A DNA stretch of 64,000 nucleotides from an uncultured Clostridia bacterium (GTDB taxonomy: Bacteria; Bacillota; Clostridia; Christensenellales; CAG-917). Both the position numbers and the translations under genes were made by a program. The notes below the pieces were generated by a model that was not told where the DNA came from, searched no databases, and worked only from the letters and a program-made list of their open reading frames with translations. The stretch is taken from contig CALABJ010000018.1 in assembly GCA_937885645.1 (NCBI GenBank), positions 72,203 to 136,202 of the forward strand. Direction: 5' to 3'. This document shows, piece by piece, positions 3,580 through 47,027 of this stretch; within the stretch, counting starts at the first letter, position 1, and the number at the start of each line of letters is the position of its first letter.

Positions 3580-3671
3580 AACAGCACTTTTTCCTGCGGA
3601 AATGATAGGATAAAGTGGCATTTTGAAAAAACAAGTAATCAACGGTAAACCCGAAACATAGTGAGGTAAAT

Positions 3672-5450: not shown

Positions 5451-6021
5451 AATTGCAATAATAATCTTGCTCCTTTTGGTAGGTTTGGTGGCGGTAGGTT
5501 GCAACAGCACCGACACCGCTCCTGCCACCTACGGAGTGTACGTCAAGTCAGTCACTGTGGAGGAGGACGTTTGCACAGTCCGTCTTTCCCGTTCGGGAAA
5601 GGGAGAGTCCCTTCAAGACTCGGTGATTGCAGTTGAAGAGGTGGGTGGAAGCTTTTTTGACACCTACATTTACACCGTGTCCTTTGACGGCGGGGCAACA
5701 TTTAGTGCCGTCAACCATCTTCTCACCCAAGATGTCACAATCTTGGAAGGGAAGGAATATTCCACTTTGAAAATAGTCTATGACTATGATACAATCTACA
5801 AATCAATAAAAAGTGACGGAGTCCACACCAAATCAGGTAGAACTCACACCCACTCTTTTGAGGTGGTGGAAGGACCTTTTCAAGTGACCTTGACAAGGGA
5901 AGTGCCCAACCAATCAGTGTGGTACGCCGTTGCAATCGGTGGGACAGTTGCGTTGCTTCTGGTGGCAGTTGTCACACTGAAAGTGGTCAGAGGAAAGTAT
6001 GGCAGAAAAGAAGAAAACTGA
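5443..6021 (+). CDS. Hypothetical lipoprotein with C-terminal membrane anchor
   Basis: The tracked ORF (5374) overlaps pepF by 77 nt. An in-frame TTG at 5443 gives (M)SKIAIIILLLLVGLVAVGC, a lipoprotein-type signal peptide. A hydrophobic helix lies near the C-terminus (WYAVAIGGTVALLLVAVVTL). The start codon is uncertain. Confidence 0.5.
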   Translation: MSKIAIIILLLLVGLVAVGCNSTDTAPATYGVYVKSVTVEEDVCTVRLSRSGKGESLQDSVIAVEEVGGSFFDTYIYTVSFDGGATFSAVNHLLTQDVTILEGKEYSTLKIVYDYDTIYKSIKSDGVHTKSGRTHTHSFEVVEGPFQVTLTREVPNQSVWYAVAIGGTVALLLVAVVTLKVVRGKYGRKEEN

Positions 6022-7537
6022 AAGAAAAAACCTGCGCGCAATGCCCAACAACGTTGAGGCAGAGCAAAACGTCTTGGGCGCATTGCTCATTGACGACAAA
6101 ATGGCAGACGTCATTATGCCCACTCTCGCAGTGGAGGACTTTTTCGTAAGTCAAAACCGCATAATCTACTCCGCTATGCGTGAACTTGTTGAGCGCAGTT
6201 CCCCCATTGACACCGTGTCAGTGGCAGACAAGCTGGAACTTCAAGGCAAACTTGACGAAGTGGGAAGCATTGACTATCTCAACTCACTTGCAATGGGAGT
6301 TGTCAGCAGTGCCAACGCAAAATACTACGCCGACATCATCAAGCGTGACTCTTTGACACGCAAGGTCATCTCTGCCGGCAACGACATTTTGGAATATGCC
6401 TACACTTGCGAAGACGGCGCAGACGCCCTTGGCAAAGCAGAGCAACTTGTGTTCAAGATTGCAGAAGAAAAAACTGACAAAGCACTGACCCACGCAAAAG
6501 AAGCCCTTGCCACCGCTTTCCAAAACATACAAGACGCACAAGCAGGCAACACCCCTAGCAACCTTATCTTCACAGGGTTCACCAACCTTGACAGAAAGAC
6601 AAAAGGTTTGAAGCCCGGTGACTTTGTCATCCTCGCCGCTCGTCCCGGTGTTGGTAAAACAGCTCTTGCACTGAACATTGCCGTCAACTGCTTGCTGAAA
6701 AACAAGACCGTTGCAGTGTTCAATATGGAAATGACCGCACCCTCACTTGTCAAACGTATGCTTGCATATCTTTCAGGCGTCACCTTTGAAAGCATGGACG
6801 TCCGCGGACAACTGAGCGACTCTGACATAGCCAAACTCTACAACGCATACACAACCCTTCTTGGCAAGGAACTTTACATAGACGACTACTCAATGAATCA
6901 CCCCAGTGATATCCTTTCAAAGTGCCGTAGATTGAAACGTGAAAAAGGTCTTGACCTTGTCATTGTCGACTATCTCCAACTTATGGAAGCGGACAGCAAG
7001 GGCAGAGCATCTGAGTCAAGACAAAATGACGTCAGCACAATGTCACGTCAACTGAAAGTCTATGCAAAGGAACTGGGCGTGCCCATCCTTGCACTGTCAC
7101 AAATGAGCCGTGGCGCAGAAAAGGAAGGCAGAGCACCTCAACTGAGTGACCTTCGTGACTCAGGCGCAATCGAGCAAGATGCTGACGTCGTCATGTTCTT
7201 GCACGATCCTAGCAAGGTTGATGAAAATCTTCCTAAGGATGAAATCCTACTTCTCCTCCGCAAAAACAGAAGCGGTTCAATTGGTGAAATGAAACTCCAC
7301 TGGGACGGCAACACCACCACTTTCCGTGATATTGATGAAAGTGGTGCAGTGAGAGAGCCTGAAACCCCAGTCATCCAAGGTGACGTCACCCGTCTTGAAG
7401 AGGTTGAAACCAACGGCAATCCCATGCCTTTCCAAGAGTTGGCAGGGGACTTTGAAGAAGTTGTCACCGCAGAAGTGTTGCCCTTTGACGACGACGATAT
7501 GGAATACGTTGACGAAGGAGATGACCTTCCTTTCTAA
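5999..7537 (+). CDS. dnaB: Replicative DNA helicase DnaB with a 66-aa acidic C-terminal extension
   Basis: N-terminal NVEAEQNVLGALLID, Walker A ARPGVGKTALAL, and IVDYLQLM...LSQMSRG motifs. AGAGGAAAG lies upstream of the ATG. The canonical end (...WDGNTTTFRDID) is followed by an extra tail ending DEGDDLPF. Confidence 0.95.
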   Translation: MAEKKKTERKNLRAMPNNVEAEQNVLGALLIDDKMADVIMPTLAVEDFFVSQNRIIYSAMRELVERSSPIDTVSVADKLELQGKLDEVGSIDYLNSLAMGVVSSANAKYYADIIKRDSLTRKVISAGNDILEYAYTCEDGADALGKAEQLVFKIAEEKTDKALTHAKEALATAFQNIQDAQAGNTPSNLIFTGFTNLDRKTKGLKPGDFVILAARPGVGKTALALNIAVNCLLKNKTVAVFNMEMTAPSLVKRMLAYLSGVTFESMDVRGQLSDSDIAKLYNAYTTLLGKELYIDDYSMNHPSDILSKCRRLKREKGLDLVIVDYLQLMEADSKGRASESRQNDVSTMSRQLKVYAKELGVPILALSQMSRGAEKEGRAPQLSDLRDSGAIEQDADVVMFLHDPSKVDENLPKDEILLLLRKNRSGSIGEMKLHWDGNTTTFRDIDESGAVREPETPVIQGDVTRLEEVETNGNPMPFQELAGDFEEVVTAEVLPFDDDDMEYVDEGDDLPF

Positions 7538-7562
7538 AATCTAGCACAAATGAAATGAAAAG

Positions 7563-7591
7563 AGGACAGAGAAATCTGTCCTTTTTATTTT
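7563..7591 (+). terminator. Rho-independent terminator after dnaB
   Basis: aggacaga-gaaa-tctgtcct stem-loop followed by a T-run. Confidence 0.6.
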
Positions 7592-7645
7592 GCCCACAAA
7601 AAGGTTTGTCCTCATACTCCTCACGCGCGCGACATATATTAAAGT

Positions 7646-7894
7646 ATGTTTTTTGACGAGTTGAAATTGAAACTAAATCTTGAAGACGTAGTCCACTTTT
7701 CGGTGACAATATTAGGAAGAAATGCCCTTGTCATCGAGGGTGTAAAAAACGTTGTTTTTTCAAACGAAAATCAGCTTAAAGCAAGGGTGAAAAAGTGTGT
7801 TGTTTCAGTCAGCGGTGAGAGGCTCAAAATCAAGGAAATAGGTGACGGAAACATCCTCATTTCAGGAGTTATAAACGGGGTGCAATATGAGTGA
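7646..7894 (+). CDS. yqfC: Sporulation protein YqfC (YabP family)
   Basis: 82-aa ORF with YabP/YqfC-like sequence (VTILGRNALVIEGVKNV...LKIKEIGDGNILISG). It sits directly before yqfD and phoH, as in the Bacillus yqfC-yqfD-phoH order. Confidence 0.75.
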   Translation: MFFDELKLKLNLEDVVHFSVTILGRNALVIEGVKNVVFSNENQLKARVKKCVVSVSGERLKIKEIGDGNILISGVINGVQYE

Positions 7895-33293: not shown

Positions 33294-33321
33294 CAGAGCA
33301 GAGCACCTCATCTCAATCAAC

Positions 33322-33386
33322 CAAAAAACCGAGAGCAATCTCGGTTTTTTTATTAAAAGAAAAAACGGACTTGTTTGTCCGTTTTT
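33322..33386. repeat. Double-hairpin terminator cassette, left copy (inverted repeat partner of 44064-44129)
   Basis: aaaaaaccgagagcaatctcggttttttt followed by aaaaaacggacttgtttgtccgttttt, lying between convergent genes. By my manual alignment it matches the reverse complement of 44064-44129 except for a 1-nt T-run indel and 3 loop positions. Confidence 0.7.
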
Positions 33387-33400
33387 GTTTTGCACTTCCT

Positions 33401-34108: not shown

Positions 34109-34474
34109 GGGGGTGTACTGGATTCGACTACTGGTTGGAGTCGGGATAAGCATGTCGCAGGCTCGTCTGCGTTAAAACGGAAAGCTAAAATTAAATGCAA
34201 AAAACAATACTATGAGATCCTCAAACATGGGTCTCGCCCTCGCTGCATAATTTAGTCAGCGTGTCGCCCCGAGGTTTTCTGTTCCCTTGGCAAGCGGCAT
34301 CAGAAAAACAGACAACGCCAGCCCAGTGTCCTGTAAGTTGGTTGTCATGAAGGACTCATCAATCTGCGGTTCGCCCACGTACCAAAGTGCGAAAAATCTA
34401 AACGTGAGATAAACATGTAGAAAGTCGCGGTGAAGGCTTTTAGGACCGGGGTTCAACTCCCCGCATCTCCACCA
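34109..34474 (+). ncRNA. ssrA: tmRNA (SsrA)
   Basis: 5' GGGGGTGTACTGGATTCGAC. The 3' T-arm is cGGGGTTCAACTCCCCg plus CATCTCCACCA. The acceptor stem pairs, including a G3:U pair. The internal tag ORF gca aaa aac aat act atg aga tcc tca aac atg ggt ctc gcc ctc gct gca taa encodes AKNNTMRSSNMGLALAA*. Confidence 0.9.
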
Positions 34475-34475
34475 A
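34454..34475 (+). repeat. attL-side 22-bp direct repeat (3' end of ssrA)
   Basis: caactccccgcatctccaccaa is identical to 44039-44060. Confidence 0.85.
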
Positions 34476-34476
34476 T

Positions 34477-34520
34477 GACAACCATATTCGAACTCTGTTC
34501 GAGACTGGTTGTCTTTTTCT
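34477..34520 (+). terminator. Element-supplied terminator for ssrA
   Basis: gacaacca...tggttgtc stem (34477-34513) followed by ttttt, immediately after the tmRNA CCA end. Confidence 0.6.
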
Positions 34521-34700
34521 TTATCAATGAATTATAGCACAATGCTTTATGCCGCGAAAGGTTCTTTACATGAGTAGGAACGTGTTAGGCTATTTGCCAA
34601 GGCAAAACAAAAGCCCCTTGGGCGGTGGTGTTGGCTTCTTTGCCATCATACCACGTTCCGAAGAGGCTCGTGTCAAGAGCACCGTGGAATAAACATTGCA

Positions 34701-36224
34701 CTATCCAATTATCATCTCTATATCTATGTCAAATAGATATGGCTCCTTCTTGCTCTCAATATAGACTGGCATCACCAGTTTTTCTTTGTAAAATAAAAAG
34801 CCCTGACTTATCTCAGGACTTGTTGTTATTGGGCTGTTTAGATATATTTCAATTTTGTCGTTGAAAACTATGATCTCTTTTATTAAAGTTCCAATCAGCA
34901 TTTGTGCATCCAGCCTTAATGCCTTTTCGTAAAATGATTTTATTTGCACCTCATTCAAACAGATTATCGTCTTGCATTTCTCAATGCTTATTTCCTTTTC
35001 TAGCTCAATTTGTCTGGTTTCAAGTTCATGCAATCGCTTATTTGTTGTGTTAGACATTATACCTCTTTCAAGCGCAGCAACCAAGTTATTTAAAGAAGTT
35101 TCTACCTGCCTTAATTCTCGTTGTAGTGAGCCAAGCCGAGGATTGTCTTTAAGCAACTTATTCTGCAAAGCCATAACATTTTTAATTAAGCCATTCATCG
35201 TTGTAGGTTCACATAATTTTGAAATGATAATATCTATGATAAAATTCTCAAAATCATCCTTCCGAATAGTTGTTTTTTGGCAACCATTTCTATATGTTTT
35301 TCTGCCACGACATTTGTAGTAATGGACTTTTTTGCCCGTCTTAGATGTTCCACTTTCTGCGCTAAAAGGTTTGCCACAATAACCACATTTTACCTTATCT
35401 CTCAGCAGATAAACGGCATTAAGACTTCGTGTTCCTCTAAAATTAGTACTCAAGATTTGTTGGACTTGTTGATAGACCTCTACATCAACTATTTTAGGAT
35501 ATATGTTGTCAAACACCTCTCCATTATGCCTATATATCCCCGTGTATTTTTCCTTTCTCAAAATATTGTAAAGCATGTTCATATTGAAAGGCTTTCCTCT
35601 GTAAAGAACACCCTTTTCGGTGAGCGACTTAATAATTTGTGGCACGTATACACCAACGGCATATTGTGAGAAAATATACCTTACAATTTCTGCCTCGCCC
35701 TCGTTGATAACAATCTTCTTATCAACCACCTTGTATCCGTAGGGGACACCTCCACCACAATATAATCCTTTCTTTCGATTTTCATCTTGTCCACGGCGTA
35801 TCTTTTGTGACATTTCAGCTGAGTAATATTCAGCGATACCAATATAGACGTTTTCAAGCAGTATGCCATCTAGGTTTTTTGTGCCATCAATATTCTCGGA
35901 TGTTCGTTGCGTTGCAGAGATAAGAATCTTGCCATTATCGGTCAATTTCTTCTTGTTGAGTATGACCTCAGTTGAGTTTCTTCCAAATCGATCTATGGCA
36001 TAAACAAGAACGATTTCCCATGGTGCATTTTTGCTATCTGACAGCATTTGTTGGAATGCTGCTCGGTTATCATTGGTGCCTGTCATGGCACGATCTATGT
36101 ATGTGTTGACAATAAGCAAGTTGTTATCTCTTGCATATTTTTCACACACTGTAAGTTGACCTTCAATAGATTGTTCGGTCTGTGCATTGCTAGAGTATCT
36201 AGCATAGATTACTGCAGATTTCAT
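34701..36224 (-). CDS. Large serine recombinase (integrase)
   Basis: N-terminal resolvase catalytic domain AVIYARYSSNAQTEQSIEGQ. Then a recombinase domain, a zinc-ribbon (CGYCGKPFS...YYKCRGRK) and a coiled-coil-like region. 507 aa. Confidence 0.9.
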   Translation of the reverse strand: MKSAVIYARYSSNAQTEQSIEGQLTVCEKYARDNNLLIVNTYIDRAMTGTNDNRAAFQQMLSDSKNAPWEIVLVYAIDRFGRNSTEVILNKKKLTDNGKILISATQRTSENIDGTKNLDGILLENVYIGIAEYYSAEMSQKIRRGQDENRKKGLYCGGGVPYGYKVVDKKIVINEGEAEIVRYIFSQYAVGVYVPQIIKSLTEKGVLYRGKPFNMNMLYNILRKEKYTGIYRHNGEVFDNIYPKIVDVEVYQQVQQILSTNFRGTRSLNAVYLLRDKVKCGYCGKPFSAESGTSKTGKKVHYYKCRGRKTYRNGCQKTTIRKDDFENFIIDIIISKLCEPTTMNGLIKNVMALQNKLLKDNPRLGSLQRELRQVETSLNNLVAALERGIMSNTTNKRLHELETRQIELEKEISIEKCKTIICLNEVQIKSFYEKALRLDAQMLIGTLIKEIIVFNDKIEIYLNSPITTSPEISQGFLFYKEKLVMPVYIESKKEPYLFDIDIEMIIG

Positions 36225-36411
36225 ATTTTATCCTCCTATTTTGTATTAATAAAATTTGTCTTTCGACAGGAGCAAAGAAAACGGAACGGCGTTAAGCTGC
36301 TCGCTTTTCTTTTGAGTTCATCTGCTTTTATACAAGGGTTGAGTATCAATGCACCTTGCCCTTGTATAAAAGAGTCGTTCCGTTTATGCTCCACAAAAGG
36401 CGAAAGAAAAA

Positions 36412-37293
36412 CTAGTTCGCCTTTCTCATTTGTGCTATTACTTCGGGGCTAACTTTTCCCATATAACAACCCTCATCTAAGCATTGAAAGTCGTCAAAAA
36501 GTATTAGTTTAATTCCTTTCTTTTCGTCCATGCTGCACGCCACATCTTCATCCAAAATGTCCGAAATAAAATAGGTCGGCGTGCCTTTGGAATACACTAC
36601 TCTCTCACCGGATTTTTCTAGGTATTTCATCAAGTATCTTTTGGCATCTTGTATTGCATCCATATTGCTTTGGATAGGGCTGAAATCAGACCTTCCAAAC
36701 CTTTCATTGAAATATGTGTTTTGCGTTGTAGTTTGCCTTTTATGAGTGTTGAAACTGTAATCGGTCACTTCTATTAACTCACCAACCATTGCGCCCTCAG
36801 GGATGTTAAAAATGCCGTGGAAGTGCAATCTGTTCTTTTCTGGACTACGTTCCCAAACGCCGATATATACCCAACCTTTTCTATGACTCATTTTCTTCAA
36901 GCAATTGGATAGTTTCTTTTTGAAACTTTCTTCATCGTGTAATTTGTCGTCATAGGTGAATGTGCAAAAGTAGTTCCATCTTCCAATATTAATTTTCCTA
37001 GACAATCTCTTTCTTCGTTCAATAAGGTTTCTTTGTCGCTTTTCCATATATTCATCTGCAAATTGTTTTGCCTCATTTTCATCTTCAAAATATCCTTTCA
37101 ATTCCCTTATCAATTCTTCTTTCTTCTCAACCTTTTTCTTGCCTTTGTTTTCCTCAAATACTTTGTCCGCTTTTTCTTTTAATTCAATGTCATCTTTGCT
37201 TATTTTCTTTCGTTTCTTCGTAGGTCTTGTTGTCTTTGGTATGGCAATATAATGACTGCCGTCTGAGTAAATTTTTGTCTCTTCGTAAAACAT
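36412..37293 (-). CDS. Rolling-circle replication initiator (HUH endonuclease, Rep)
   Basis: Motif I WNYFCTFTYD, motif II (HUH) RLHFHGIFN and motif III AKRYLMKYLEKS (catalytic Tyr). Lys-rich N-terminus. Confidence 0.75.
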   Translation of the reverse strand: MFYEETKIYSDGSHYIAIPKTTRPTKKRKKISKDDIELKEKADKVFEENKGKKKVEKKEELIRELKGYFEDENEAKQFADEYMEKRQRNLIERRKRLSRKINIGRWNYFCTFTYDDKLHDEESFKKKLSNCLKKMSHRKGWVYIGVWERSPEKNRLHFHGIFNIPEGAMVGELIEVTDYSFNTHKRQTTTQNTYFNERFGRSDFSPIQSNMDAIQDAKRYLMKYLEKSGERVVYSKGTPTYFISDILDEDVACSMDEKKGIKLILFDDFQCLDEGCYMGKVSPEVIAQMRKAN

Positions 37294-37296
37294 GTT

Positions 37297-37446
37297 TTAA
37301 TCCTCCTTTTCGTTTTCTAGTTGCTCTTTGTGAAGCGACAAAACTCGTGCTAGCAGTGTGGCATAAATTGCCTTCTGCTGTTGTTCACTAAGGCTATTGA
37401 CATCTATGTTTCCGCGCACAATAACCTCAATTCCATTTTTGTCCAT
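37297..37446 (-). CDS. Small hypothetical protein (49 aa) translationally coupled to Rep
   Basis: Not in the ORF track because it is under 60 aa. AAAAGGAGG lies 7 nt upstream of the ATG at 37446. Translation: MDKNGIEVIVRGNIDVNSLSEQQQKAIYATLLARVLSLHKEQLENEKED. The stop lies 3 nt before the rep ATG. Confidence 0.5.
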   Translation of the reverse strand: MDKNGIEVIVRGNIDVNSLSEQQQKAIYATLLARVLSLHKEQLENEKED

Positions 37447-37769
37447 AGCGACACCTCCTTTTGTTTTATTTCAAAAGGTATGAAAAAAACGCAATACGAA
37501 AACGTATTACGCCATTCCATTAAGTGCACCATCCGATACTAGCCCTCGGACGACGGGTTTGCGCCTTTTTTATTCGGCAATCTTTACATTAGGCTTGCCA
37601 CCTTGAATGCGATTTCAGTCCTTTTTTATTCAACTTGATTTTATCTTATTTTGTTTTGAGGGTGTGAGTCTTTTGCCGTTAAGATATCCACACTTTCCGT
37701 TATGAAAATATAGGAAAACGATACTTTTAGGTAAGTTAGTGATGTCTGAATTTGTGGCAAAGAAAAAGT

Positions 37770-37884
37770 CCCCCCAATATATAGCCACGAAAAACGCAAA
37801 ATTTAACGGTCTAAACGAAAAATTCTTGAAAAAATTTTTATCCCCTCAATATATATACCTTGAGAACAGGCAAAATATAACGGT
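37770..37884. repeat. Two ~45-bp imperfect direct repeats in the element's non-coding region (iteron-like)
   Basis: ccccccaatatatagcc...gcaaaatttaacggt (37770-37810) versus cccctcaatatatatacc...gcaaaatataacggt (37842-37884). Confidence 0.5.
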
Positions 37885-37935
37885 TTTTTGAAAAAAGTTA
37901 AAAAAAATTTAATTGCCTTTGAAAAGATAAAGAAT

Positions 37936-37999
37936 CCAGCCAGAGGGATAGGCGAAAGATTGCACAAGCGGGCTAGCGTGCAACTTCGCCCCCTGCTGG
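37936..37999. other. Long imperfect hairpin (candidate single-strand origin or structured RNA)
   Basis: Three nested stems: CCAGC(c)AG(a)GG / CCCTGCTGG, GGCGAA / TTCGCC and TTGCAC / GTGCAA. About 22 bp over 64 nt. Confidence 0.45.
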
Positions 38000-38038
38000 C
38001 TTTATCTCAAAGCAATTTAGTTTTGTTTTTACACAACC

Positions 38039-38093
38039 GTGTGCTTGTCTATGGCGGAGCGAAGCGACGCCACTTGTATCAAGACAAGCACAC
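38039..38093 (-). other. Hairpin carrying a CTTGATA nick-site-like motif (candidate double-strand origin for the HUH Rep)
   Basis: Perfect 12-bp outer stem gtgtgcttgtct / agacaagcacac and inner stem tggcg / cgcca. The minus strand (the rep-coding strand) reads gtgtgcttgTCTTGATACaag at 38077-38083. Confidence 0.5.
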
Positions 38094-38204
38094 GTCTCAG
38101 TGCCATTCCATCGTAAATTTTGAAAAAAGATTGATTTTTTAATTAATTTGTGTTAAACTAATAATGTTCCACGGGACGAACAATATAACTTGGAGATTTT
38201 GTTA

Positions 38205-38393
38205 ATGAATGACGAATTTATTACCGCAAATCAAGCAGCAAAAAGATGGAACATTACGCAACGAAGAGTGCAAATCTTATGCGCTAAAGGGCGAATTGAC
38301 GGAGTCTTTAAATTGGGCGAAAGCTGGGTGATTCCTGCAAATGCCAAAAAACCAATCGACAGAAGAATTAAAAAGGAAAAAGAAAATGTTTAA
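38205..38393 (+). CDS. Small helix-turn-helix DNA-binding protein (excisionase/MerR-like HTH; controller or RDF candidate)
   Basis: 62 aa. ITANQAAKRWNITQRRVQILCAKGRIDGVFKLGESWVIP resembles excisionase-type HTH proteins. GGAG lies 9 nt upstream. Its 3' end overlaps the first methyltransferase start by 8 nt. Confidence 0.6.
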   Translation: MNDEFITANQAAKRWNITQRRVQILCAKGRIDGVFKLGESWVIPANAKKPIDRRIKKEKENV

Positions 38394-39429
38394 TGTATTA
38401 GATTTGTTTTGTGGATGCGGTGGATTGTCTTATGGATTTAAATCTGCAGGATATAATGTAGTTTTAGGTATTGACAATGATAAAAATGCCCTGGAAACAT
38501 TCGAATTTAACCATAAAAATTCAAAGTCAATATGTGGTGATATTACTACCATACGCGCAGAAGATATAAGTCGTATTGTTGGTGGAAAACAAATTGACGT
38601 TATCATTGGTGGACCGCCTTGCCAAGGAATGTCTTTATCCGGTCCTAGAAGATTCGATGATCCAAGAAATAAACTGTATTTATCTTATATTCGCCTTGTT
38701 GAAGAACTTCAACCTAAAGCGTTTGTTATAGAAAATGTTCCTGGATTAGTGTCGTTATTTAACGGACAAATTAAGGAAAGCATTGTCGAAAGATTAACAG
38801 CCTTAGGTTATAATGTGCAATACAAAATTTTGTGTTCGGCTGATTATGGTGTTCCCCAAAGTCGCAGAAGAGTTGTTTTTGTTGGATTAAAAACGGGCGA
38901 ATTTGTATACCCTGAAATTAATAATAATCAAGTAACTTGTGAAATGGCGTTGAGTGATTTGCCCCCCTTGATAGATTGTTTAGGGGAAGAAAATCAAGAA
39001 TATGCTACCAGAGCCACTTGCGATTATCAAAAACTGATGAGAAAACGTTCTAATGTAGTGAAAAATCATATAGCAGCAACTCATTCTGATAAAGTAAAAA
39101 ACATTATTTCTATGGTTCCCGATGGTGGTAATTATAAAAACCTCCCCGAACCCTATCGCAGCAGTCGAAATTTTCACGTGGCATGGACGCGTTTTAATAG
39201 TCAAAAGCCTGCTCCCACTATTGATACGGGGCATCGACATCATTTCCATTATAAGTATGATAGAGTTCCTACGGTTAGAGAATGTGCGAGGTTGCAATCA
39301 TTTCCCGATGACTTTATCTTCTTGGGAAACAAAACACAGCAATTCAGACAGGTTGGCAATGCTGTTCCACCATTAATGGCACAGGCGATTGCTGAACAGT
39401 TACTGCAATTTATTACTAAGGGGAACTAA
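38386..39429 (+). CDS. DNA (cytosine-5)-methyltransferase 1
   Basis: Motif I DLFCGCGG, IV GGPPCQGMS, VI ENVPGL, VIII QSRRRV and X GNAVPP. The start is taken at MFNVLDLF. Confidence 0.9.
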   Translation: MFNVLDLFCGCGGLSYGFKSAGYNVVLGIDNDKNALETFEFNHKNSKSICGDITTIRAEDISRIVGGKQIDVIIGGPPCQGMSLSGPRRFDDPRNKLYLSYIRLVEELQPKAFVIENVPGLVSLFNGQIKESIVERLTALGYNVQYKILCSADYGVPQSRRRVVFVGLKTGEFVYPEINNNQVTCEMALSDLPPLIDCLGEENQEYATRATCDYQKLMRKRSNVVKNHIAATHSDKVKNIISMVPDGGNYKNLPEPYRSSRNFHVAWTRFNSQKPAPTIDTGHRHHFHYKYDRVPTVRECARLQSFPDDFIFLGNKTQQFRQVGNAVPPLMAQAIAEQLLQFITKGN

Positions 39430-39430
39430 T

Positions 39431-40840
39431 ATGTATAAGGTTCCTGAAGAATATTATTTTAGAATACACCACGTTCGTCCGCGCTTTAAAGGCGATATTG
39501 AAAATGTTTTATTATTTATGGCGACAGAAATTTCCAAAATGGAAGAAATGCCTGACAAAGATTTTGCTAACGAATTAAACAATGCCATTAGAAGATATCC
39601 TGGCAATGGTATAAGAGAAATTAAAACAATTAACAATTGGAGAACGGAAATATCTGCTTTATTTGGTTATTTCATTGTGGAAAATGGAATAACTCGCGCT
39701 GGTAAGCGCGCTATTGAATTGGCTCAAAAGGAGGATTTGGTAGAAGCGTTTAAGACTTTCCTTTATACTTTCCAATATCCAGGCGCACATATTAAAACTC
39801 ACGAAGTATTAAAGCAAATTGAAAAAGGTGTTCATTTTAAGCCTGCACAGTACATACTACAAGTACTAGATGAGGCGGAAAAGGATGCGAATGGTAGAGT
39901 TGGATTAACCAAAGAAGAAGTTTGCCATTGTATTTTTAACGATTTGAGAGCAACGGCGCAATTAGAAACCCCGTTGGATACTTGGAAAAGGATAAAACAT
40001 AATCGCGATTTGGAAATGGAATATGATTCTACAGGAGATGTCGTTCGATATGCTGGTGATATCGTGGATTATATGGAAATTGCAAACTTATTAGTTTCCC
40101 ACGATTGTCGTTGTTATTACAAAAACAAGCTTGAAAGTGAAACAATATTAAAGTTTATTAATTCATCCGAGTGGTATAGTGCTTATGATAAACTAATTCA
40201 AAAGAAAAGCGCAACGCTTGAAAATATCAAAGATTGCGTAGTTGGTTGGTTTAAGTATGTAAATAAGGATTTGGCGGATACTGACTTCACTACGGATATT
40301 TTAGCGTTTATTGCAAACGATACGGACGAATATAAAGACCTTCAAAAAAGTAAAGATGATATTTTTGAGAAGTTGTTGGGTGGAGAAGATATTAAGACTA
40401 AGGATATTGGAGATATCGGAGAAAGTCTTGTTCATTCTCACGAATGTCAGAGAATTAAAATTGGTGGACGTGGAGACCTTATTCATTTAATTAAACGAAT
40501 CCCTACTCAATTTGCCGTGGGTTATGATATACAGTCCGTTGAAATTGATGAAAGAAAGAGATACATTGAAGTAAAAACTACAATTAGCTCAAAACCTTTA
40601 CATTTCAATAAAATTCATCTTACTCCAAATGAATGGAGCACAGCAACTACAACTCGTGACCGTTATTTTGTTTATAGGCTTATGATAAGCAAGGTGGATA
40701 AAAAGTTGTATGTCATTCAAGACCCTGTTGGTTTGTATAAAAATGATATAATTGAAATGATACCTAAAAATGGTGCGGAGATTACGTTAAACGTAGATAC
40801 CGCAGGACAATATGAGGAGTTATTATCGTGGGCAAATTAA
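39431..40840 (+). CDS. Putative restriction endonuclease (C-terminal PD-(D/E)xK, DUF3883-like domain)
   Basis: 469-aa ORF squeezed between two m5C methyltransferase genes: 1-nt gap upstream, 13-nt overlap downstream. The C-terminus has GYDIQS...YIEVKTT (D...ExK) and ...RDRYFVYRL..., resembling DUF3883. The N-terminal ~330 aa are unrecognised. Confidence 0.55.
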   Translation: MYKVPEEYYFRIHHVRPRFKGDIENVLLFMATEISKMEEMPDKDFANELNNAIRRYPGNGIREIKTINNWRTEISALFGYFIVENGITRAGKRAIELAQKEDLVEAFKTFLYTFQYPGAHIKTHEVLKQIEKGVHFKPAQYILQVLDEAEKDANGRVGLTKEEVCHCIFNDLRATAQLETPLDTWKRIKHNRDLEMEYDSTGDVVRYAGDIVDYMEIANLLVSHDCRCYYKNKLESETILKFINSSEWYSAYDKLIQKKSATLENIKDCVVGWFKYVNKDLADTDFTTDILAFIANDTDEYKDLQKSKDDIFEKLLGGEDIKTKDIGDIGESLVHSHECQRIKIGGRGDLIHLIKRIPTQFAVGYDIQSVEIDERKRYIEVKTTISSKPLHFNKIHLTPNEWSTATTTRDRYFVYRLMISKVDKKLYVIQDPVGLYKNDIIEMIPKNGAEITLNVDTAGQYEELLSWAN

Positions 40841-41793
40841 AAGTAGCATCATTATTTTGTGGTTGTGGCGGTACTGATGTTGGTTTGTTAGGCGGATTTG
40901 ACTTTTTAGGCAAGAATTATCCTAATAATCCCGTAAAAATTGTATATGCGAACGACATTGACGATAATGCTTGTCGCATATTTGAAGAAAATTTTGGTAT
41001 TACGCCTGATAATCGTGATATTAGAGAAATAAAATCAGAAGAACTTCCCAATTTTGATATTTTGACAGGTGGTTTTCCTTGTCAATCGTTTTCTATTGTC
41101 GCTCAAAATCCTAAACGCTTAGGCGTTAAAGACGATAGAGGCAAGTTGTTTTTTGAAATGTGTCGCATTTTAAGAGATAAAAAGCCAAAATGTTTTATAG
41201 CAGAAAATGTAAAAGGCATTTTGTCCGCTAATGAAAAAAATGCATTTCCGTTAATTACTAAAGAATTTGAAGATAGCGGCTATAATGTATCTTATAAACT
41301 TCTCAATGCGGTTAACTTTGGCGTTCCACAAAAGAGAGAAAGAGTTATTATTGTCGGCATAAGAAAAGATTTAGGTTTCACATTCGACTTTAACGGTTTG
41401 CCGCAAGAAGGCGATTTCCCTATTGCTTCACTCTCTCAAGTAATAGAAAATAGTGTTCCTGAAAAATACTTCTTTAGTCAAAAAGCCGTTGACGGAATGA
41501 TGAGAAAAAGAGAAACTATGAACAAAGGTCGTGCTCAAGACATCACTCAACCTTGCAATACGGTTGGAGCACACCTTGCAAAAGTTTCGTTGAATAGTAC
41601 TGACCCCGTTTTAATGGTCGGAGAAAGATATAGAAGATTTACTCCGAGAGAAGTTGCTCGCATTCAGTCTTTCCCGGAAACTTTCAAATTGGTAGGTTCG
41701 GAATCGGCTCAATATAAGGCTTTAGGCAATGCTATTGCACCTGTTATGTTTTGGCATGTAGCAAATTCTGTATTAAAACGCTTAAAAGACTAA
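40828..41793 (+). CDS. DNA (cytosine-5)-methyltransferase 2
   Basis: GTG start. Motif I SLFCGCGG, IV GGFPCQSFS, VI ENVKG, VIII QKRERV and X GNAIAPV. Confidence 0.9.
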   Translation: MGKLKVASLFCGCGGTDVGLLGGFDFLGKNYPNNPVKIVYANDIDDNACRIFEENFGITPDNRDIREIKSEELPNFDILTGGFPCQSFSIVAQNPKRLGVKDDRGKLFFEMCRILRDKKPKCFIAENVKGILSANEKNAFPLITKEFEDSGYNVSYKLLNAVNFGVPQKRERVIIVGIRKDLGFTFDFNGLPQEGDFPIASLSQVIENSVPEKYFFSQKAVDGMMRKRETMNKGRAQDITQPCNTVGAHLAKVSLNSTDPVLMVGERYRRFTPREVARIQSFPETFKLVGSESAQYKALGNAIAPVMFWHVANSVLKRLKD

Positions 41794-41806
41794 AAAAGGA
41801 GGAATT

Positions 41807-42940
41807 ATGGAATATATTAATAAGGAAAGCAAAAAAGACATATTGGTGGAAAAAGAAGAAAGTGAACTTTTGCCAACAGTAAACATTCGGGATTATAAGT
41901 TTACAACTATGGGTGGTGACATCCAAATTAGACAGTTTGTTGACCAGCTTAATGAAGGAGATATTGAGATTCCCGATATACAACGCCATTACGTTTGGCC
42001 GCACCTTCAGGCCAGTCGTTTTATAGAGTCAGCATTGCTTGATTTGCCTTTACCTAGTGTTTTTTTATGCAAACAAAAAAATGGCAAATATTTAATCGTA
42101 GACGGGTTGCAAAGGCTTAGCACTCTAAAAATGTTTTTAAATATGGAAACAATTAATGGTAAAATATTTAAACTCAGCAATTCAAAAGAGATTTATGAAG
42201 ATTGGAGAGGTAAAACATTCGGAGAGCTATCTGTTGATGACAAACGAAAATTGAAAAATAAAACGATACACGCTATTATAGTTGAACAGCAAAACCCTGA
42301 AAATTATGATGGTTTATTCTTAATATTTGAAAGAATAAACTCGGGAGGGGTGCAATTAAATCAACAAGAGATCCGAAATGCTATATATCAGACGGATTAC
42401 AATAGCTTATTGGCAACAATAAATGAAGACCCACTATGGAGATCGTTTTTTGGAGATAAAAATTCTCACAAACGAATGAAAGATGTAGAGATGATTTTGC
42501 GCTTTTTTGCGTTGGTGGATCATCCTATTAAAAACACTGACACGGGAACAACTTCTTTTGTAGCACTCTTAAATAAACAGATGAACGAAAATAAGGATGT
42601 CACCCAAGAAAAAATGGAAGCATCAAAAGATAGATTTTTGGCAACTCTTAACAAGCTTCGAGACTTTTTCAATACTGATATTTTTAGAATGAACATTTCG
42701 GATAAAAATAAAGTTACAAAGAAGTTCTACGCTACCTTGTTTGATTCAATTATGATAGCCACGGATTATGCTCTTTTAAAGGACCCGAATATACATTCCA
42801 ATACAAGCAAACTGGAAGAATTGTTTAAAAATGATTTGTTCAAAGGATTTATAAATTCTCATACATCAGAAAACAAGTCGATCTTTGGGAGAATAAATTT
42901 GGCGTGTCAAATTTTGTACGGAATGAACTATGCAAGATGA
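41807..42940 (+). CDS. DUF262 (ParB-like/GmrSD N-terminal) domain protein
   Basis: IEIPDIQRHYVW and YLIVDGLQRLSTL motifs typical of DUF262. I saw no DUF1524/HNH-type C-terminal motif. Confidence 0.75.
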   Translation: MEYINKESKKDILVEKEESELLPTVNIRDYKFTTMGGDIQIRQFVDQLNEGDIEIPDIQRHYVWPHLQASRFIESALLDLPLPSVFLCKQKNGKYLIVDGLQRLSTLKMFLNMETINGKIFKLSNSKEIYEDWRGKTFGELSVDDKRKLKNKTIHAIIVEQQNPENYDGLFLIFERINSGGVQLNQQEIRNAIYQTDYNSLLATINEDPLWRSFFGDKNSHKRMKDVEMILRFFALVDHPIKNTDTGTTSFVALLNKQMNENKDVTQEKMEASKDRFLATLNKLRDFFNTDIFRMNISDKNKVTKKFYATLFDSIMIATDYALLKDPNIHSNTSKLEELFKNDLFKGFINSHTSENKSIFGRINLACQILYGMNYAR

Positions 42941-43490
42941 TTATGTAAATAAAATAAATGCTACATTAAAAGAGTTGCTTAGGATACGGAAAAAAATCAA
43001 TAAATTTCAAAGCTCGCCTCATTCTATCAATATGCTTCCTGATATAAATGTATATAAAAACTATGCTGTGATTTTAGCATACGGATGTATAGAAAATATA
43101 TCTAAAAATATTATTGCTGATTATTATAAAATTTCAACAATGCCTATGCGATGCCAAGAGTTTGCAGCACGATTATTGGGCGATAAGTATTCTCTGTCCG
43201 TTGACAAAGAGAGCTTTAAGAATTTCCTCAAAAAAGAATGTAGTAGCGAATGGTTTGAAGAGATGAAACGCCGAGAAAAAGCTGATTTGTTAGATAAGCG
43301 CTATAAAAGATGCAGATATTCGAAGATGTGGATGGCATTAAATTTTATCTTTCAAGAAAGGTGTAATTTTGCGCATGGCAAATCTTCTTATCAAGGGACA
43401 ATTAAGGAGCTGATTGATAATTTTTATTCTGCTAGATCGTGGTTGTATGAATTAGATAACATCGTTTCCTCGTCCAAATTGAATGGATAA
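42930..43490 (+). CDS. HEPN-like protein (Rx4H motif; MAE_28990/MAE_18760-like)
   Basis: 186-aa ORF overlapping the DUF262 gene by 11 nt. It contains QERCNFAHGK (R-x4-H), the HEPN catalytic signature. The family assignment is from memory. Confidence 0.5.
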   Translation: MQDDYVNKINATLKELLRIRKKINKFQSSPHSINMLPDINVYKNYAVILAYGCIENISKNIIADYYKISTMPMRCQEFAARLLGDKYSLSVDKESFKNFLKKECSSEWFEEMKRREKADLLDKRYKRCRYSKMWMALNFIFQERCNFAHGKSSYQGTIKELIDNFYSARSWLYELDNIVSSSKLNG

Positions 43491-43531
43491 ATACATCGGG
43501 CTATAGATATGAAAATCGGAGGGGGTAATTT

Positions 43532-43666
43532 ATGAACTGCAATTGTGCCATTTGTAATAACAATAGTCCATTTGACATGCCTAAAGAAATAGTAGAAGCG
43601 GCCGTAATGCTGCAATGGCTAAGAGCTTCCCTTTTGTATATTTGCCAAATTCAGGGCAAAATCTAA
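43532..43666 (+). CDS. Small Cys-containing ORF (44 aa), possibly 5' part of a frameshifted gene
   Basis: GGAGGGGG lies 7 nt upstream of the ATG. Translation: MNCNCAICNNNSPFDMPKEIVEAAVMLQWLRASLLYICQIQGKI. It overlaps the +1-frame ORF 43615-43797. Confidence 0.3.
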   Translation: MNCNCAICNNNSPFDMPKEIVEAAVMLQWLRASLLYICQIQGKI

Positions 43667-43865
43667 ACAATTTAAAGGCTTATAATCGTGAGTTGGCAAT
43701 GGCATCTTCAAAAAACAAACAATATCATAAAGCCGCAAAGATAATTGTTAATAAGTGCTGTGGTGAAGATATTATAGTACATCATCCACCCTATTAATGC
43801 CGTGGAATTGATATAAACAATCATCTATTAGACATTGACTTAATGTTCGAATATCTTTGATATTG

Positions 43866-43911
43866 CTCCACCAAAAGGACAAAACGGACAAACAAGTCCG
43901 TTTTTTCTTTT
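43866..43911 (+). repeat. Partial third copy of the ssrA 3' tip plus its downstream terminator
   Basis: ctccaccaaaaggacaaaacggacaaacaagtccgttttttctttt versus 44052-44097 ctccaccaaaagtacaaaacggacaatttagtccgttttttctttt. The 46-nt alignment has 4 mismatches, 3 of them in the hairpin loop. Confidence 0.7.
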
Positions 43912-44038
43912 GGCAGAGTGTGGGGATACACAACTACGTTGTGTGCAACTTTGTTGCTATGAACCACGGGGCCGGGCTGGCGCTCATTCGCCTGTGCAAG
44001 CACGCTCATTTCACTATTACAGCGCGCGGACGCGCCTA

Positions 44039-44060
44039 CAACTCCCCGCATCTCCACCAA
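44039..44060 (+). repeat. attR-side 22-bp direct repeat
   Basis: caactccccgcatctccaccaa is identical to 34454-34475. Confidence 0.85.
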
Positions 44061-44063
44061 AAG

Positions 44064-44129
44064 TACAAAACGGACAATTTAGTCCGTTTTTTCTTTTAAT
44101 AAAAAACCGAGATTGCTCTCGGTTTTTTG
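44064..44129. repeat. Double-hairpin terminator cassette, right copy (probable native ssrA terminator + terminator of the lipoprotein gene)
   Basis: acaaaacggacaatttagtccgtttttt followed by aaaaaaccgagattgctctcggtttttt. Inverted-repeat partner of 33322-33386. Confidence 0.7.
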
Positions 44130-44146: not shown

Positions 44147-46822
44147 TTAGATTGTTTTTGTGAAGGTGATTGTGGCGGTGTCGCCGTTGATTGAGTCCAC
44201 AACAAAGTTGTAAACAAGAGCATTTCCGCTGTCGTCTGTGACTGCACCCATTGTGTCACCTGCGATATAGGTGAAAGTGTCGTTTGATGACTTTATATAC
44301 TCAATAAGGTTGTTTAAAGTACCGTATTGGTCAGATGAGTGGGTATTGTTGTTGTAGACGTCATAGTACGTTTCACCGTCATAAACCTCACGATAGAGGG
44401 AAGCATTGACGTGATAGACCACCACGCCGTCACGGGAGAAATAGCCGTAGTCATCACCTGCGTTGAGGCCTGTGTTGGTGTAGTACATAAGGACGTAATA
44501 TTCTTGATATGCACCAAGGTCATCAGACCAGTTGTTTGCGATGATGATGGTGTCACCTGTCTTGCCGAAATCGGTGAGAGTGAGGGTGACAGAGTCCTCC
44601 GCCACAACAAGGCGAGAGGGGGTAATCCAGCCGTAGTTGAACTTGGTGTAGGGGTTGTGGTCGCCGAACATAGCGTCCATCATATCTTTGCCGTCGAGGA
44701 GCAAATCCTCATTGACGTAAGCGGTGTCGTAGTAGTCGTCTGCACCGAGGACGTGGGCAAATTCGTGGACGTATGTGTAGGTGTTGAAGGCGGTGGTGCC
44801 GGTGTAGTCAACGTTGCCGTCCTCGTCGTAGGACTCATGCATAAATTGATATGACGCCCAGAGATAGTCGTTGGCACTGACACCGTCGTATTCGTAGTAA
44901 TATCCGTCCTCGTCCACGTGGGTGTTCCAATATCTATATGCCCAGTAGAAGTCGGCGGAGTCATCTATGTCGAGAGTGTGGATGATGACAACTGCATCAA
45001 TAATGGAGTTGCCGTCGCTGTCGAACTCGCTGAGATCCATAGTGGTGGCAAGATATTGAAGAGCCTCGTCAATGATCAGTTGATCGCCGTTCATACCGCC
45101 TTCAGCGTCAGTAGAGTTGGCGTAATATGTGCTGTTGTTTTCAGGTCTAAACCAACTGTCAAGGACGGTGAAGTCCAACGTCAATTGACCATAGCTTGAA
45201 ATGTTGAAATATTCATAGACAGAGTAGAATCCGTCAGTTGAATCATTGCTTTCAAATGCCTTTTTGATGAGGTCGATATCGTATCCTTTGCTTGATGCCG
45301 TCACGTCAGCAAAGTCCACGGGAATGACAAGCACCTTAGGTGTGCCAGTTGTGGGGCATCCGTCAAGATAATATCCTTGGTCGTGGACGTTTTTCACATT
45401 GGTTGCTTTGGAGAAGTCAATGTTATATACACCATTTGTGCCTGAGGGGAGACCAAGTCCGTTGTTGGTGATGAGGTCAACATCATCAGTGTTGCCACCG
45501 CCGGTGTTTCCGCCAGTATTTCCGCTGTCACCACTGCCGTCACCCTCGGTGTAGAGATAGACATAAAGATCAACCACATATCCGTCTTCGGTGTTGTAGT
45601 ATGCCACGTCAATGCAGATGTCGCCCTTGTCGTAGAAATACCAAGTGTCACCGTATTCATCTACGTCACTGCCAGAGAGCACGTATCCTGCGCTGACAAG
45701 AGCGGAGCGATATGCATTGTATTCCGCCTCGGTATTGCCGTAGGTGTAGAAGTTGACGCCGTTTTCACCTTCAAGGGTATATTCGTCAACGTAATATTCG
45801 TTGTTTGAGAGGAAGGGGATAGTTTCACCCACTTTTGCAATTATCGTTTGATTTTCAGATGCAGTGAAAGCGGTGTAGGTCTTTGTGTCACCAGTGTTTC
45901 CGCCAGTATTTCCGTTATCACCACTGCCGTCATCTTCGGTGTAAAGATAGACGTATGAGTCCACCACGTACTCGCCTTCATAATAGTAGAATGAGATGTC
46001 AATGCAGACGTCGCCTTTTTCGTAATAATACCAAGTGTCGCCATATTCATCTTCGCCGTCACCCACAAGGGTATAGCCTACGCTGACGATAGTTGTGCAG
46101 TATGCGTCAAATTCCGCTTTGGTATTGCCGAAGGTGTAGAAAGCGATGTATGTGCCGTATTCATCACTGCCCACCTCAACGTAGTATTCGTCGTTGGGGA
46201 GGAAGGGGATAGTCTCACCAACCAAGTTTGTCAGCATATCAACTTCACCAGAAGTGAAAGAGGTGTAGGTTTTGCCTGAGGGAGTATCACCGTCACTAGG
46301 GGTATCTCCGCCAGAGGGAGTATCATCGCCTCCGGGATTGTCACCGCCGGGAGTATCACCACCGCCGGGGGTATCTTCGGGGATAATGCGAAGTGTTGCA
46401 ACGGCGGTGATTGTGCCGTTTGAGTATGACATTTCAACACGGATGACATTTTTGTCCGCAAGTTCTTTTTCATAGATGTGCCAAGTCTTGCCACCGATAT
46501 CATCTATGTAGGCATCTTTATATTCATATCCTGTCATAAGACTGCGATATGTGATAAAATCGTCAACCTCCGCACCATTGATGGTGTAGGTGACTGCTTC
46601 AGCATTTCCCACAACAGAATACTCATTGCAGGGCAGGAAGGGGATAGTCTCACCGACCAAATCCACAAACGCCGCTTTTTCTTCATCGGTGAAATCGGTG
46701 TAGAGGTATGTAGGTGTGCCGTCAGCAGGATTGTCGTCTATTGGTTCGTCAACGGGGCTACAAGCCACAAAAAGGGACAAACCAATGAGGAATACAAGGA
46801 TAAGTGCAAGCAGTTTTTTCAT
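44147..46822 (-). CDS. Secreted lipoprotein: three tandem ~130-aa repeats plus C-terminal M6 (InhA-like) zinc metalloprotease domain
   Basis: ATG at 46822 preceded by GAGGTG. Signal peptide MKKLLALILVFLIGLSLFVAC. KVLVIPVDFAD and the HEXXH motif in VHEFAHVLGADDYYD (nt 44753-44767) resemble M6 peptidases. Confidence 0.7.
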   Translation of the reverse strand: MKKLLALILVFLIGLSLFVACSPVDEPIDDNPADGTPTYLYTDFTDEEKAAFVDLVGETIPFLPCNEYSVVGNAEAVTYTINGAEVDDFITYRSLMTGYEYKDAYIDDIGGKTWHIYEKELADKNVIRVEMSYSNGTITAVATLRIIPEDTPGGGDTPGGDNPGGDDTPSGGDTPSDGDTPSGKTYTSFTSGEVDMLTNLVGETIPFLPNDEYYVEVGSDEYGTYIAFYTFGNTKAEFDAYCTTIVSVGYTLVGDGEDEYGDTWYYYEKGDVCIDISFYYYEGEYVVDSYVYLYTEDDGSGDNGNTGGNTGDTKTYTAFTASENQTIIAKVGETIPFLSNNEYYVDEYTLEGENGVNFYTYGNTEAEYNAYRSALVSAGYVLSGSDVDEYGDTWYFYDKGDICIDVAYYNTEDGYVVDLYVYLYTEGDGSGDSGNTGGNTGGGNTDDVDLITNNGLGLPSGTNGVYNIDFSKATNVKNVHDQGYYLDGCPTTGTPKVLVIPVDFADVTASSKGYDIDLIKKAFESNDSTDGFYSVYEYFNISSYGQLTLDFTVLDSWFRPENNSTYYANSTDAEGGMNGDQLIIDEALQYLATTMDLSEFDSDGNSIIDAVVIIHTLDIDDSADFYWAYRYWNTHVDEDGYYYEYDGVSANDYLWASYQFMHESYDEDGNVDYTGTTAFNTYTYVHEFAHVLGADDYYDTAYVNEDLLLDGKDMMDAMFGDHNPYTKFNYGWITPSRLVVAEDSVTLTLTDFGKTGDTIIIANNWSDDLGAYQEYYVLMYYTNTGLNAGDDYGYFSRDGVVVYHVNASLYREVYDGETYYDVYNNNTHSSDQYGTLNNLIEYIKSSNDTFTYIAGDTMGAVTDDSGNALVYNFVVDSINGDTATITFTKTI
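45485..46714 (-). repeat. Intragenic tandem repeats (3 units) in the lipoprotein gene
   Basis: The units start (P/K)TY..FT...LVGETIPFL(P/S). Units 2 (45884-46273) and 3 (45485-45883) are clearly similar at protein level and each ends in GSGD(N/S)GNTGGNTG. Unit 1 is diverged and ends in a TPGGGDTPGGDNPGGDDTPSGGDTPSDGDTPSG linker. Confidence 0.8.
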
Positions 46823-47027
46823 AATGCACCTCATTTGTTTTTTTATATTGTAGCACAAATGAAGAAATATGGAAATATTTTTTTATCTTAGCGCGTACCA
46901 CCTGCGCGCGCAAAACATTATTCAAAAATTGAACCTACAATAGTGGAGAGTTTTATCTTCAAAACAGGGGATAAACCACTGAAAATGTTATATAAACCCA
47001 CAAAAACGATGAATAAAATTCATAATG

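Follow-up and report, generated by a model that had tools for sequence, protein, structure and literature searches.

PD-T4-2, an anti-phage system recorded as 'DUF262, HEPN', consists at the ECOR65 locus of two coding sequences over 1,540 bp (Vassallo et al. 2022, PMC9519451). The second of these carries no database identifier in the supplement of that study, where HHpred assigned the first protein (A) to PF03235 (99.7%) and the second (B) to PF18735 (97.8%). When cloned with its native promoter in E. coli K-12, PD-T4-2 reduces T4 plaquing, and its deletion from the native strain ECOR65 restores T4 plaquing; systems selected on T4 in general also defended against further T-even phages (PMC9519451). 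An operon of this kind had already been given as 'Ribo L-PSP-HEPN: operon with ParB' by Anantharaman et al. 2013 (PMC3710099). A 2025 analysis nevertheless counts PD-T4-2 among the systems that 'remain largely uncharacterized' (PMC12065111), and no mechanistic account of PD-T4-2 was found in the literature searched. A preprint on DARNA was considered as a source on mechanism and rejected, since it concerns a different, single-protein HEPN system, and the DUF262-HEPN pair is not described in a preprint on 'embedded defences'. Here, we analyze a pair of DUF262 and HEPN genes (positions 41807..43490) in a 64,000-nucleotide stretch of contig CALABJ010000018.1 from an uncultured Clostridia bacterium (assembly GCA_937885645.1), referred to below as the window.

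The window pair is very likely a diverged, Firmicute-type member of the PD-T4-2 family of anti-phage modules. The combination itself is not new: it was published as an operon link in 2013 and as an anti-phage system in 2022, and the present locus is a further example. The original prediction, made from the window's sequence, had called the pair uncharacterised and lacking experiments, a description superseded by the demonstrated protection of PD-T4-2 against T4 (PMC9519451) and by the operon noted in the 2013 study (PMC3710099). Its structural description was reproduced throughout, including the DUF262 motifs, the missing DUF1524/HNH half, the 186-amino-acid HEPN protein with an Rx4H signature, the 11-nucleotide (nt) gene overlap, the 13-nt distance from the preceding methyltransferase gene, the arrangement of all six genes in one putative transcription unit, and the coupled, conserved character of a defense-type module.

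The first gene (41807..42940, + strand; ATG start, TGA stop at 42938-42940), taken from the open reading frame (ORF) listing, encodes a PD-T4-2A-type protein of 377 amino acids (aa), whose sole Pfam match is GmrSD_N (DUF262; residues 42-194, E 4.3e-30). The three published DUF262 motifs, QRxxxW, DGxQR and FxxxN (PMC12065111), occupy Q59-W64, D99-R103 and F174-N178, respectively, and these motifs I-III are invariant across 31 homologs. By comparison with PADLOC models, the protein matches PD-T4-2_A at 7.5e-47, with residues 49-370 aligned to profile positions 48-361 of 363, while its best full-length match is NsnA of the Menshen system (3.4e-66). The C-terminal half (residues 195-377) gives no Pfam or nuclease match even at E 10 and contains zero conserved histidines across the 31 homologs; the DUF1524/HNH half is therefore absent, and a cryptic nuclease in this region was ruled out on the same grounds. 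An AlphaFold2 model (predicted local distance difference test, pLDDT, 83.5) comprises a mixed alpha/beta N-terminal domain and a helical C-terminal domain. Foldseek comparison of this model with the PDB returned BrxU as the best match (8.7e-6), followed by the pNOB8 ParB-N structure, SspE and CTP-binding ParB proteins. The N-terminal domain is of ParB/Srx fold and resembles nucleoside triphosphatases (NTPases); the helical C-terminal domain is probably DNA-binding, and we infer that it corresponds to the 'ParBDB' domain of PMC12065111.

The second gene (42930..43490, + strand), defined by the ORF listing and Pfam, encodes a PD-T4-2B-type HEPN protein of 186 aa belonging to the RiboL-PSP-HEPN family (HEPN_RiboL-PSP, PF18735; 30.8 bits, slightly over the curated cut-off of 28.4). 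The motif ERCNFAH(G) occupies residues 143-149 and provides the putative catalytic pair R144-x4-H149. Across an alignment of 81 HEPN partners (A9), R144 is kept in 80 and H149 in 79, with a consensus of RNxFAHG; the exceptions are one truncated and one degenerate ORF, and a further residue, E55, is present in all 81. Characterized HEPN domains with an Rx4-6H motif are typically ribonucleases (RNases). The subtype found in the window is longer than usual (183-186 versus ~163 aa). Its AlphaFold2 model (pLDDT 93.8; predicted template modeling score, pTM, 0.89) is all-helical with seven helices, and the corresponding Foldseek lists are headed by HEPN toxins (8xdj, 8xeh, 7bxo, 5yep, 4nqf) and a phage HEPN_MAE_28990-like protein, all of them weak matches (E 0.2-1, TM 0.3-0.55). 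A profile search of PDB sequences with this protein gave spurious matches only and no solved relative by sequence.

Several lines of comparison connect both proteins to PD-T4-2. The HEPN partners encoded next to orthologous DUF262 genes match PADLOC PD-T4-2_B with E values of 6e-10 to 1e-4, and remote matches of the window-HEPN profile likewise match this model. When a window-type HEPN profile was aligned by hhalign with a profile of PD-T4-2_B-positive partners, the two were matched over their full length (98.9%, E 2.3e-17) with the RxxFAHG motifs superposed. A useful reference point is provided by a P2-like prophage of E. coli (L090, NZ_CP025859.1), in which the pair lies between the CI repressor and the integrase. 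These two proteins, named 'GmrSD restriction endonuclease domain-containing protein' and 'HEPN domain-containing protein' by the Prokaryotic Genome Annotation Pipeline, match PD-T4-2_A (1.8e-55) and PD-T4-2_B (1.4e-8) in PADLOC, and the window DUF262 protein shows 39% identity to the prophage A protein over its full length (E 1e-89). The pair is also the sole recognizable cargo of E. coli plasmids of ~3.9 kb (3.96 kb; e.g., L091, NZ_AP027804.1). With DNA queries derived from gammaproteobacterial homologs, a PD-T4-2-type pair was detected in 14 of 5,426 complete E. coli genomes. As a separate observation, Peduovirus P24B2 (L092, NC_049387.1, 30104-31979) encodes, beside the P2 replication-endonuclease gene, a DUF262 protein of ~29% identity followed by a 239-aa hypothetical protein, and this locus may be another variant that joins DUF262 to an effector.

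The organization of the pair is equally well conserved. The HEPN gene starts with an ATG at 42930, within the last codons of the DUF262 gene, and the resulting 11-nt overlap (42930..42940, + strand) is consistent with translational coupling. An identical overlap is present in loci L001-L004, L010 and L011. Five homologs of the DUF262 protein (42-68% identity) were sampled from pig-gut contigs, a Firmicute metagenome-assembled genome (MAG), Clostridium estertheticum and Methylotenera; in every case a PF18735 gene (165-186 aa) overlaps the end of the DUF262 gene, and the neighborhoods are unrelated. A broader scan that used the DUF262 alignment as query and one genome per GTDB species yielded 80 related loci with 36-85% identity, spanning Bacillota, Bacteroidota, Proteobacteria, Verrucomicrobia, Actinomycetes and one archaeal MAG. 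An ORF matching the HEPN profile lies directly 3' of the DUF262 gene in 77 of the 77 loci having at least 550 nt downstream, and in the 78 loci where a HEPN ORF is present, its start falls between -107 and +3 nt from the DUF262 stop. Because the overlapping pair recurs in every one of these 77 loci, the association is far beyond chance; since none of them carries an ATPase gene (NsnB) downstream of the DUF262 gene, the module is strictly of two genes and is not Menshen. The locus binned as archaeal (L023, CAZYHQ010000003.1, from an uncultured archaeon MAG) contains the same DUF262-HEPN pair, which suggests either inter-domain transfer or a binning error. The immediate neighbors of the pair are heterogeneous, and the recurrent ones are restriction, defense and mobility genes (ResIII, Vsr, EcoEI_R_C, MmeI, Eco57I, Methylase_S, SLFN_AlbA_2 and integrases), while in Methylotenera (L008) the pair is located in a stable chromosomal housekeeping context.

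Some results weigh against membership of the window pair in the PD-T4-2 family, and most of them concern the HEPN protein. It matches none of the PADLOC models, those of PD-T4-2_B included; the latter (PADLOC v2) recognize 58 of the 81 HEPN partners, the 183-186-aa subtype of the window being among those missed. Its similarity to the B protein of the E. coli prophage is weak (28% identity, BLASTP E 1e-4), and hhalign of the window-type profile with this one E. coli sequence reached a probability of only 9%, so that the link to PD-T4-2_B needed a profile on both sides. Foldseek returned no significant match for the HEPN model, with best E values of 0.34 in the PDB and 0.21 among viral structures (BFVD), and the HEPN assignment is accordingly a prediction drawn from sequence profiles and the motif rather than from fold comparison. 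For the DUF262 protein, the NsnA score exceeds that of PD-T4-2_A. The same holds for all PD-T4-2-type DUF262 proteins tested, and because these include the A proteins of E. coli, the NsnA model is simply broader. Finally, the phenotype, RNase activity, complex and trigger of the window pair are predictions based on sequence.

The gene structure, family membership, motif conservation, strict co-occurrence and mobile context observed for the window pair can be set beside a putative mechanism, whose complex formation, DNA trigger, RNA target and abortive-infection outcome are what we infer for the pair. Modified DNA is sensed by the DUF262 domain of GmrSD and SspE, whose NTPase activity leads to activation of the attached nuclease (PMC12065111). 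In the window pair, the DUF262 protein would serve as sensor or regulator, with the small RiboL-PSP-type HEPN ribonuclease as an effector supplied in trans. The two proteins would be made together and would most likely form a complex, because their genes appear to be translationally coupled. The DUF262 protein may detect a feature of the DNA of the infecting phage, either modified bases, as in GmrSD, BrxU and SspE, or some other DNA state. Nucleotide binding or hydrolysis at the DGxQR center would then release or activate a HEPN dimer, which would cut RNA via R144 and H149 and bring phage production to a halt, perhaps with the loss of the infected cell.

The small size of the operon, the overlap of its genes and their order, with a regulator followed by a small toxin, also resemble type II toxin-antitoxin operons, and the pair might mainly be an addiction module in which the HEPN protein is the toxin, the DUF262 protein restrains it, and the role is to stabilize the carrier island or plasmid. 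Its carriage as the only recognizable cargo of 3.9-kb E. coli plasmids and its occurrence on integrative elements and prophages would suit such a role, as would the HEPN toxins of HEPN-MNT toxin-antitoxin systems at the top of the Foldseek list. The pair is not itself of the HEPN-MNT type, as the partner of its HEPN protein is a DUF262 protein rather than an MNT nucleotidyltransferase antitoxin. Against addiction as the main role, this partner keeps invariant NTPase motifs that a simple antitoxin would not need. An anti-phage phenotype has been demonstrated for PD-T4-2 (PMC9519451), and the pair also occurs in stable chromosomal contexts such as that of Methylotenera. We regard addiction as an unlikely main function, although it is compatible with defense by abortive infection.

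The restriction-modification (R-M) operon directly upstream invites a different explanation, namely that the pair is functionally integrated with it, either as a guard that fires when R-M is inhibited (as PrrC does with EcoprrI) or through a DUF262 protein that reads the 5-methylcytosine (m5C) status set by the two methyltransferases. This operon, which is BpuJI-like type IIS, comprises a helix-turn-helix (HTH) controller-like protein (38190-38393; Pfam HTH_17), a first C5-methyltransferase (38341/38386-39429), a BpuJI-like restriction endonuclease (39389/39431-40840; BpuJI_N, 9e-100, with a C-terminal NOV_C domain) and a second C5-methyltransferase, M2 (40828-41793); the two methyltransferases match Pfam DNA_methylase at 1e-81 and 1e-75. 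Several of the starts are ambiguous: the longest ORFs overlap by 53, 41 and 13 nt, and translation probably begins at the shorter starts 38386 and 39431. All six genes, from the HTH gene through methyltransferase, endonuclease, M2 and DUF262 to HEPN, share the + strand and either overlap or are very narrowly spaced. A 13-nt spacer (41794..41806, + strand) leads from the M2 stop to the DUF262 start and carries the ribosome-binding site AAAGGAGG and no terminator. The block itself contains a single terminator-like site on the + strand, a weak one with 3 G-C pairs inside the coding region of M2 (41062-41085); a clear hairpin of this kind first occurs past the HEPN gene (43881..43904, + strand), at the probable end of the transcription unit.

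Comparative evidence on this linkage points in both directions. The block at 38131-43490 is colinear with positions 2324-7687 of a Christensenellaceae MAG (L010) at 85.8% nucleotide identity, and this colinearity stops precisely with the last codon of HEPN. The flanks are unrelated, their serine recombinases being only 35% identical; the six genes therefore move as a cassette. Another locus (L005) has an HTH gene, two C5-methyltransferase genes and two unknown genes followed by the pair, and among all loci R-M-type genes are the commonest immediate neighbors of the pair. Across the wider family, however, a C5-methyltransferase gene lies within 6 kb of the pair in only 10 of the 80 loci, directly upstream in L010 and L055 only, and in L011 and L001, both close relatives, the pair is present but the BpuJI-like R-M operon is not. 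The nucleotide identity between the window and L010 steps from ~0.93 in M2 to ~0.79 in DUF262-HEPN exactly at the M2/DUF262 junction, with 93-96% identity for the R-M proteins, 85% for the DUF262 protein and 79% for the HEPN protein; this step suggests faster evolution, a separate recombination history or separate selective constraints for the pair. PD-T4-2 is, moreover, active when cloned alone (PMC9519451). The R-M linkage is specific to this lineage and not a family trait, and the R-M part (38190..41793) is context, outside the PD-T4-2 module proper. The functional tie to a cytosine-methylating R-M system proposed in the original prediction thus finds little echo in the family, given the scarcity of C5-methyltransferase genes nearby and the occurrence of the pair alone on a plasmid and in a P2-like prophage. 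What would suggest coupling is physical linkage, and integration with the BpuJI-like system appears improbable. It is equally doubtful that the pair acts as a second-line HEPN RNase upon restriction failure or as a sensor that discriminates DNA by the m5C marks of the two co-transcribed methyltransferases, with the six genes forming one integrated two-layer cassette.

Because DUF262 proteins of the GmrSD/BrxU/SspE group act on DNA, the pair might instead be a type IV-like restriction system, with modified phage DNA, not RNA, as the substrate of either the ParB-like DUF262 domain or the HEPN protein. It would accord with this idea that PD-T4-2 was selected on T4, a phage with modified DNA, and that the partner is called a 'ParB nuclease' by Anantharaman et al. 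(PMC3710099). Yet GmrSD, BrxU and SspE cut DNA via DUF1524, which is absent from the window protein, and what is conserved in the pair in the way of catalytic-type residues is the NTPase motifs together with the R and H of HEPN. Characterized HEPN domains of the Rx4-6H type are typically RNases, and DNA targeting by the pair seems very improbable. That the pair is a remnant or variant of the three-gene Menshen system (NsnABC), with NsnA retained but NsnB and NsnC lost, is an exceedingly remote prospect. NsnA is the top PADLOC match of the DUF262 protein, but the NsnA model also gives E. coli PD-T4-2-type proteins a higher score than PD-T4-2_A does. At this locus and in the 77 related loci, an ABC-ATPase or NsnC gene is absent (the ground on which a Menshen assignment from the top match was ruled out) and the HEPN gene always comes next; PD-T4-2 and Menshen are, moreover, listed as separate DUF262 systems (PMC12065111).

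The PD-T4-2-type pair of the window resides in a low-GC stretch (GC 0.32-0.41 versus 0.45-0.50 around it), which is an integrative element of ~9.6 kb (~34476-44060) inserted at the 3' end of the transfer-messenger RNA (tmRNA) gene ssrA (34109..34474, + strand, detected by ARAGORN). The 3' end of this gene (34454-34475) constitutes the left attachment site, and the right border is a duplicated ssrA 3' end (44028..44060, + strand) with 85% identity to 34443-34475; the 22-nt ssrA end CAACTCCCCGCATCTCCACCAA is exactly repeated at 34454-34475 and 44039-44060. The element also encodes a large serine recombinase (34701-36224, - strand; Pfam Resolvase, Recombinase and Zn_ribbon_recom) and a Rep-like protein (36412-37293, - strand; REP_ORF2-G2P, PF23343). 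The six genes, with the pair joined 3' of the BpuJI-like R-M operon, travel together on a 9.6-kb serine-recombinase island.

Several additional features were noted in and around the island. The ssrA end occurs a third time as a partial copy (GCTCCACCAAAAG), which together with a near-identical hairpin terminator is located 186 nt before the right border (43866-43911 versus 44052-44097, 91% identity) and may be what an earlier or a second insertion left behind, while an inverted copy of the same hairpin and a second terminator are found upstream of ssrA at 33317-33392. Past the HEPN gene lie two small ORFs, one of 44 aa (43532-43666; cysteine-rich, with a good ribosome-binding site) and one of 60 aa (43615-43797); neither has a family match or conservation with L010, and they may represent a frameshifted remnant. 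Just past the island, a gene on the - strand (44147-46858) encodes a 903-aa predicted secreted or lipoprotein-type protein with three internal repeats of ~130 aa (…GETIPFLPN.EYYV…) and a C-terminal HEFAH metalloprotease-like motif.

The window locus reveals no new kind of immunity. Since PD-T4-2 is validated yet mechanistically unexplained, each diverged member helps to sort essential from dispensable features, and the present comparison yields a list of invariant residues (DUF262 motifs I-III, and E55, R144 and H149 of HEPN) as well as strict two-gene linkage across phyla. It also has consequences for annotation. As the PADLOC models miss about one quarter of the HEPN partners, that of the window included, the family is under-counted in defense-system censuses; the PD-T4-2_B misses, combined with the higher NsnA scores, mean that automated annotation would leave the system uncalled or wrongly hint at Menshen. 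Furthermore, the fusion to an R-M operon on a mini-island integrated in a tmRNA gene exemplifies how defense cassettes are assembled and moved as units.

Comparison with other described systems helps to delimit the module. PrrC is a single ABC-ATPase-nuclease, an anticodon nuclease that is located in the type I R-M locus EcoprrI and regulated by the R-M complex. Like the window pair, it places an RNase-type abortive-infection effector physically within an R-M operon, whereas window-type pairs are usually found without R-M, and regulation by R-M is not indicated for them. Menshen shares with the window locus an NsnA protein composed of DUF262 and a helical C-terminal domain, which gives the window protein its best HMM score, and an RNase is the presumed final effector of either system; it differs in requiring the NsnB ABC-ATPase and the NsnC effector (an inactive PIN domain plus a nuclease), whereas in the window the DUF262 gene is followed by HEPN and then by the end of the island. 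GmrSD, BrxU and SspE have in common with the window protein a DUF262 NTPase-like domain with QRxxxW, DGxQR and FxxxN, BrxU being its best structural match; each of them is one polypeptide whose DUF262 part controls the DUF1524 His-Me DNA nuclease fused to it, while the window encodes a separate, presumed HEPN RNase effector.

The comparison with PD-T4-2 itself is the closest. The window proteins are distant from the E. coli family member (39% identity for A and 28% for B), the HEPN protein is longer (186 versus ~163 aa) and missed by PADLOC PD-T4-2_B, the pair is joined to the end of an R-M operon rather than standing alone in a prophage, and the host is apparently a gut Firmicute. Shared by both are two co-directional, overlapping genes in the order A then B without a third obligatory gene, an A protein of the DUF262/ParB type with ~360-385 aa and no DUF1524, a small PF18735 HEPN protein B with RxxxxH, and carriage on mobile elements. 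To these are added a full-length match of A to the PD-T4-2_A model and homology of B by profile-profile comparison.

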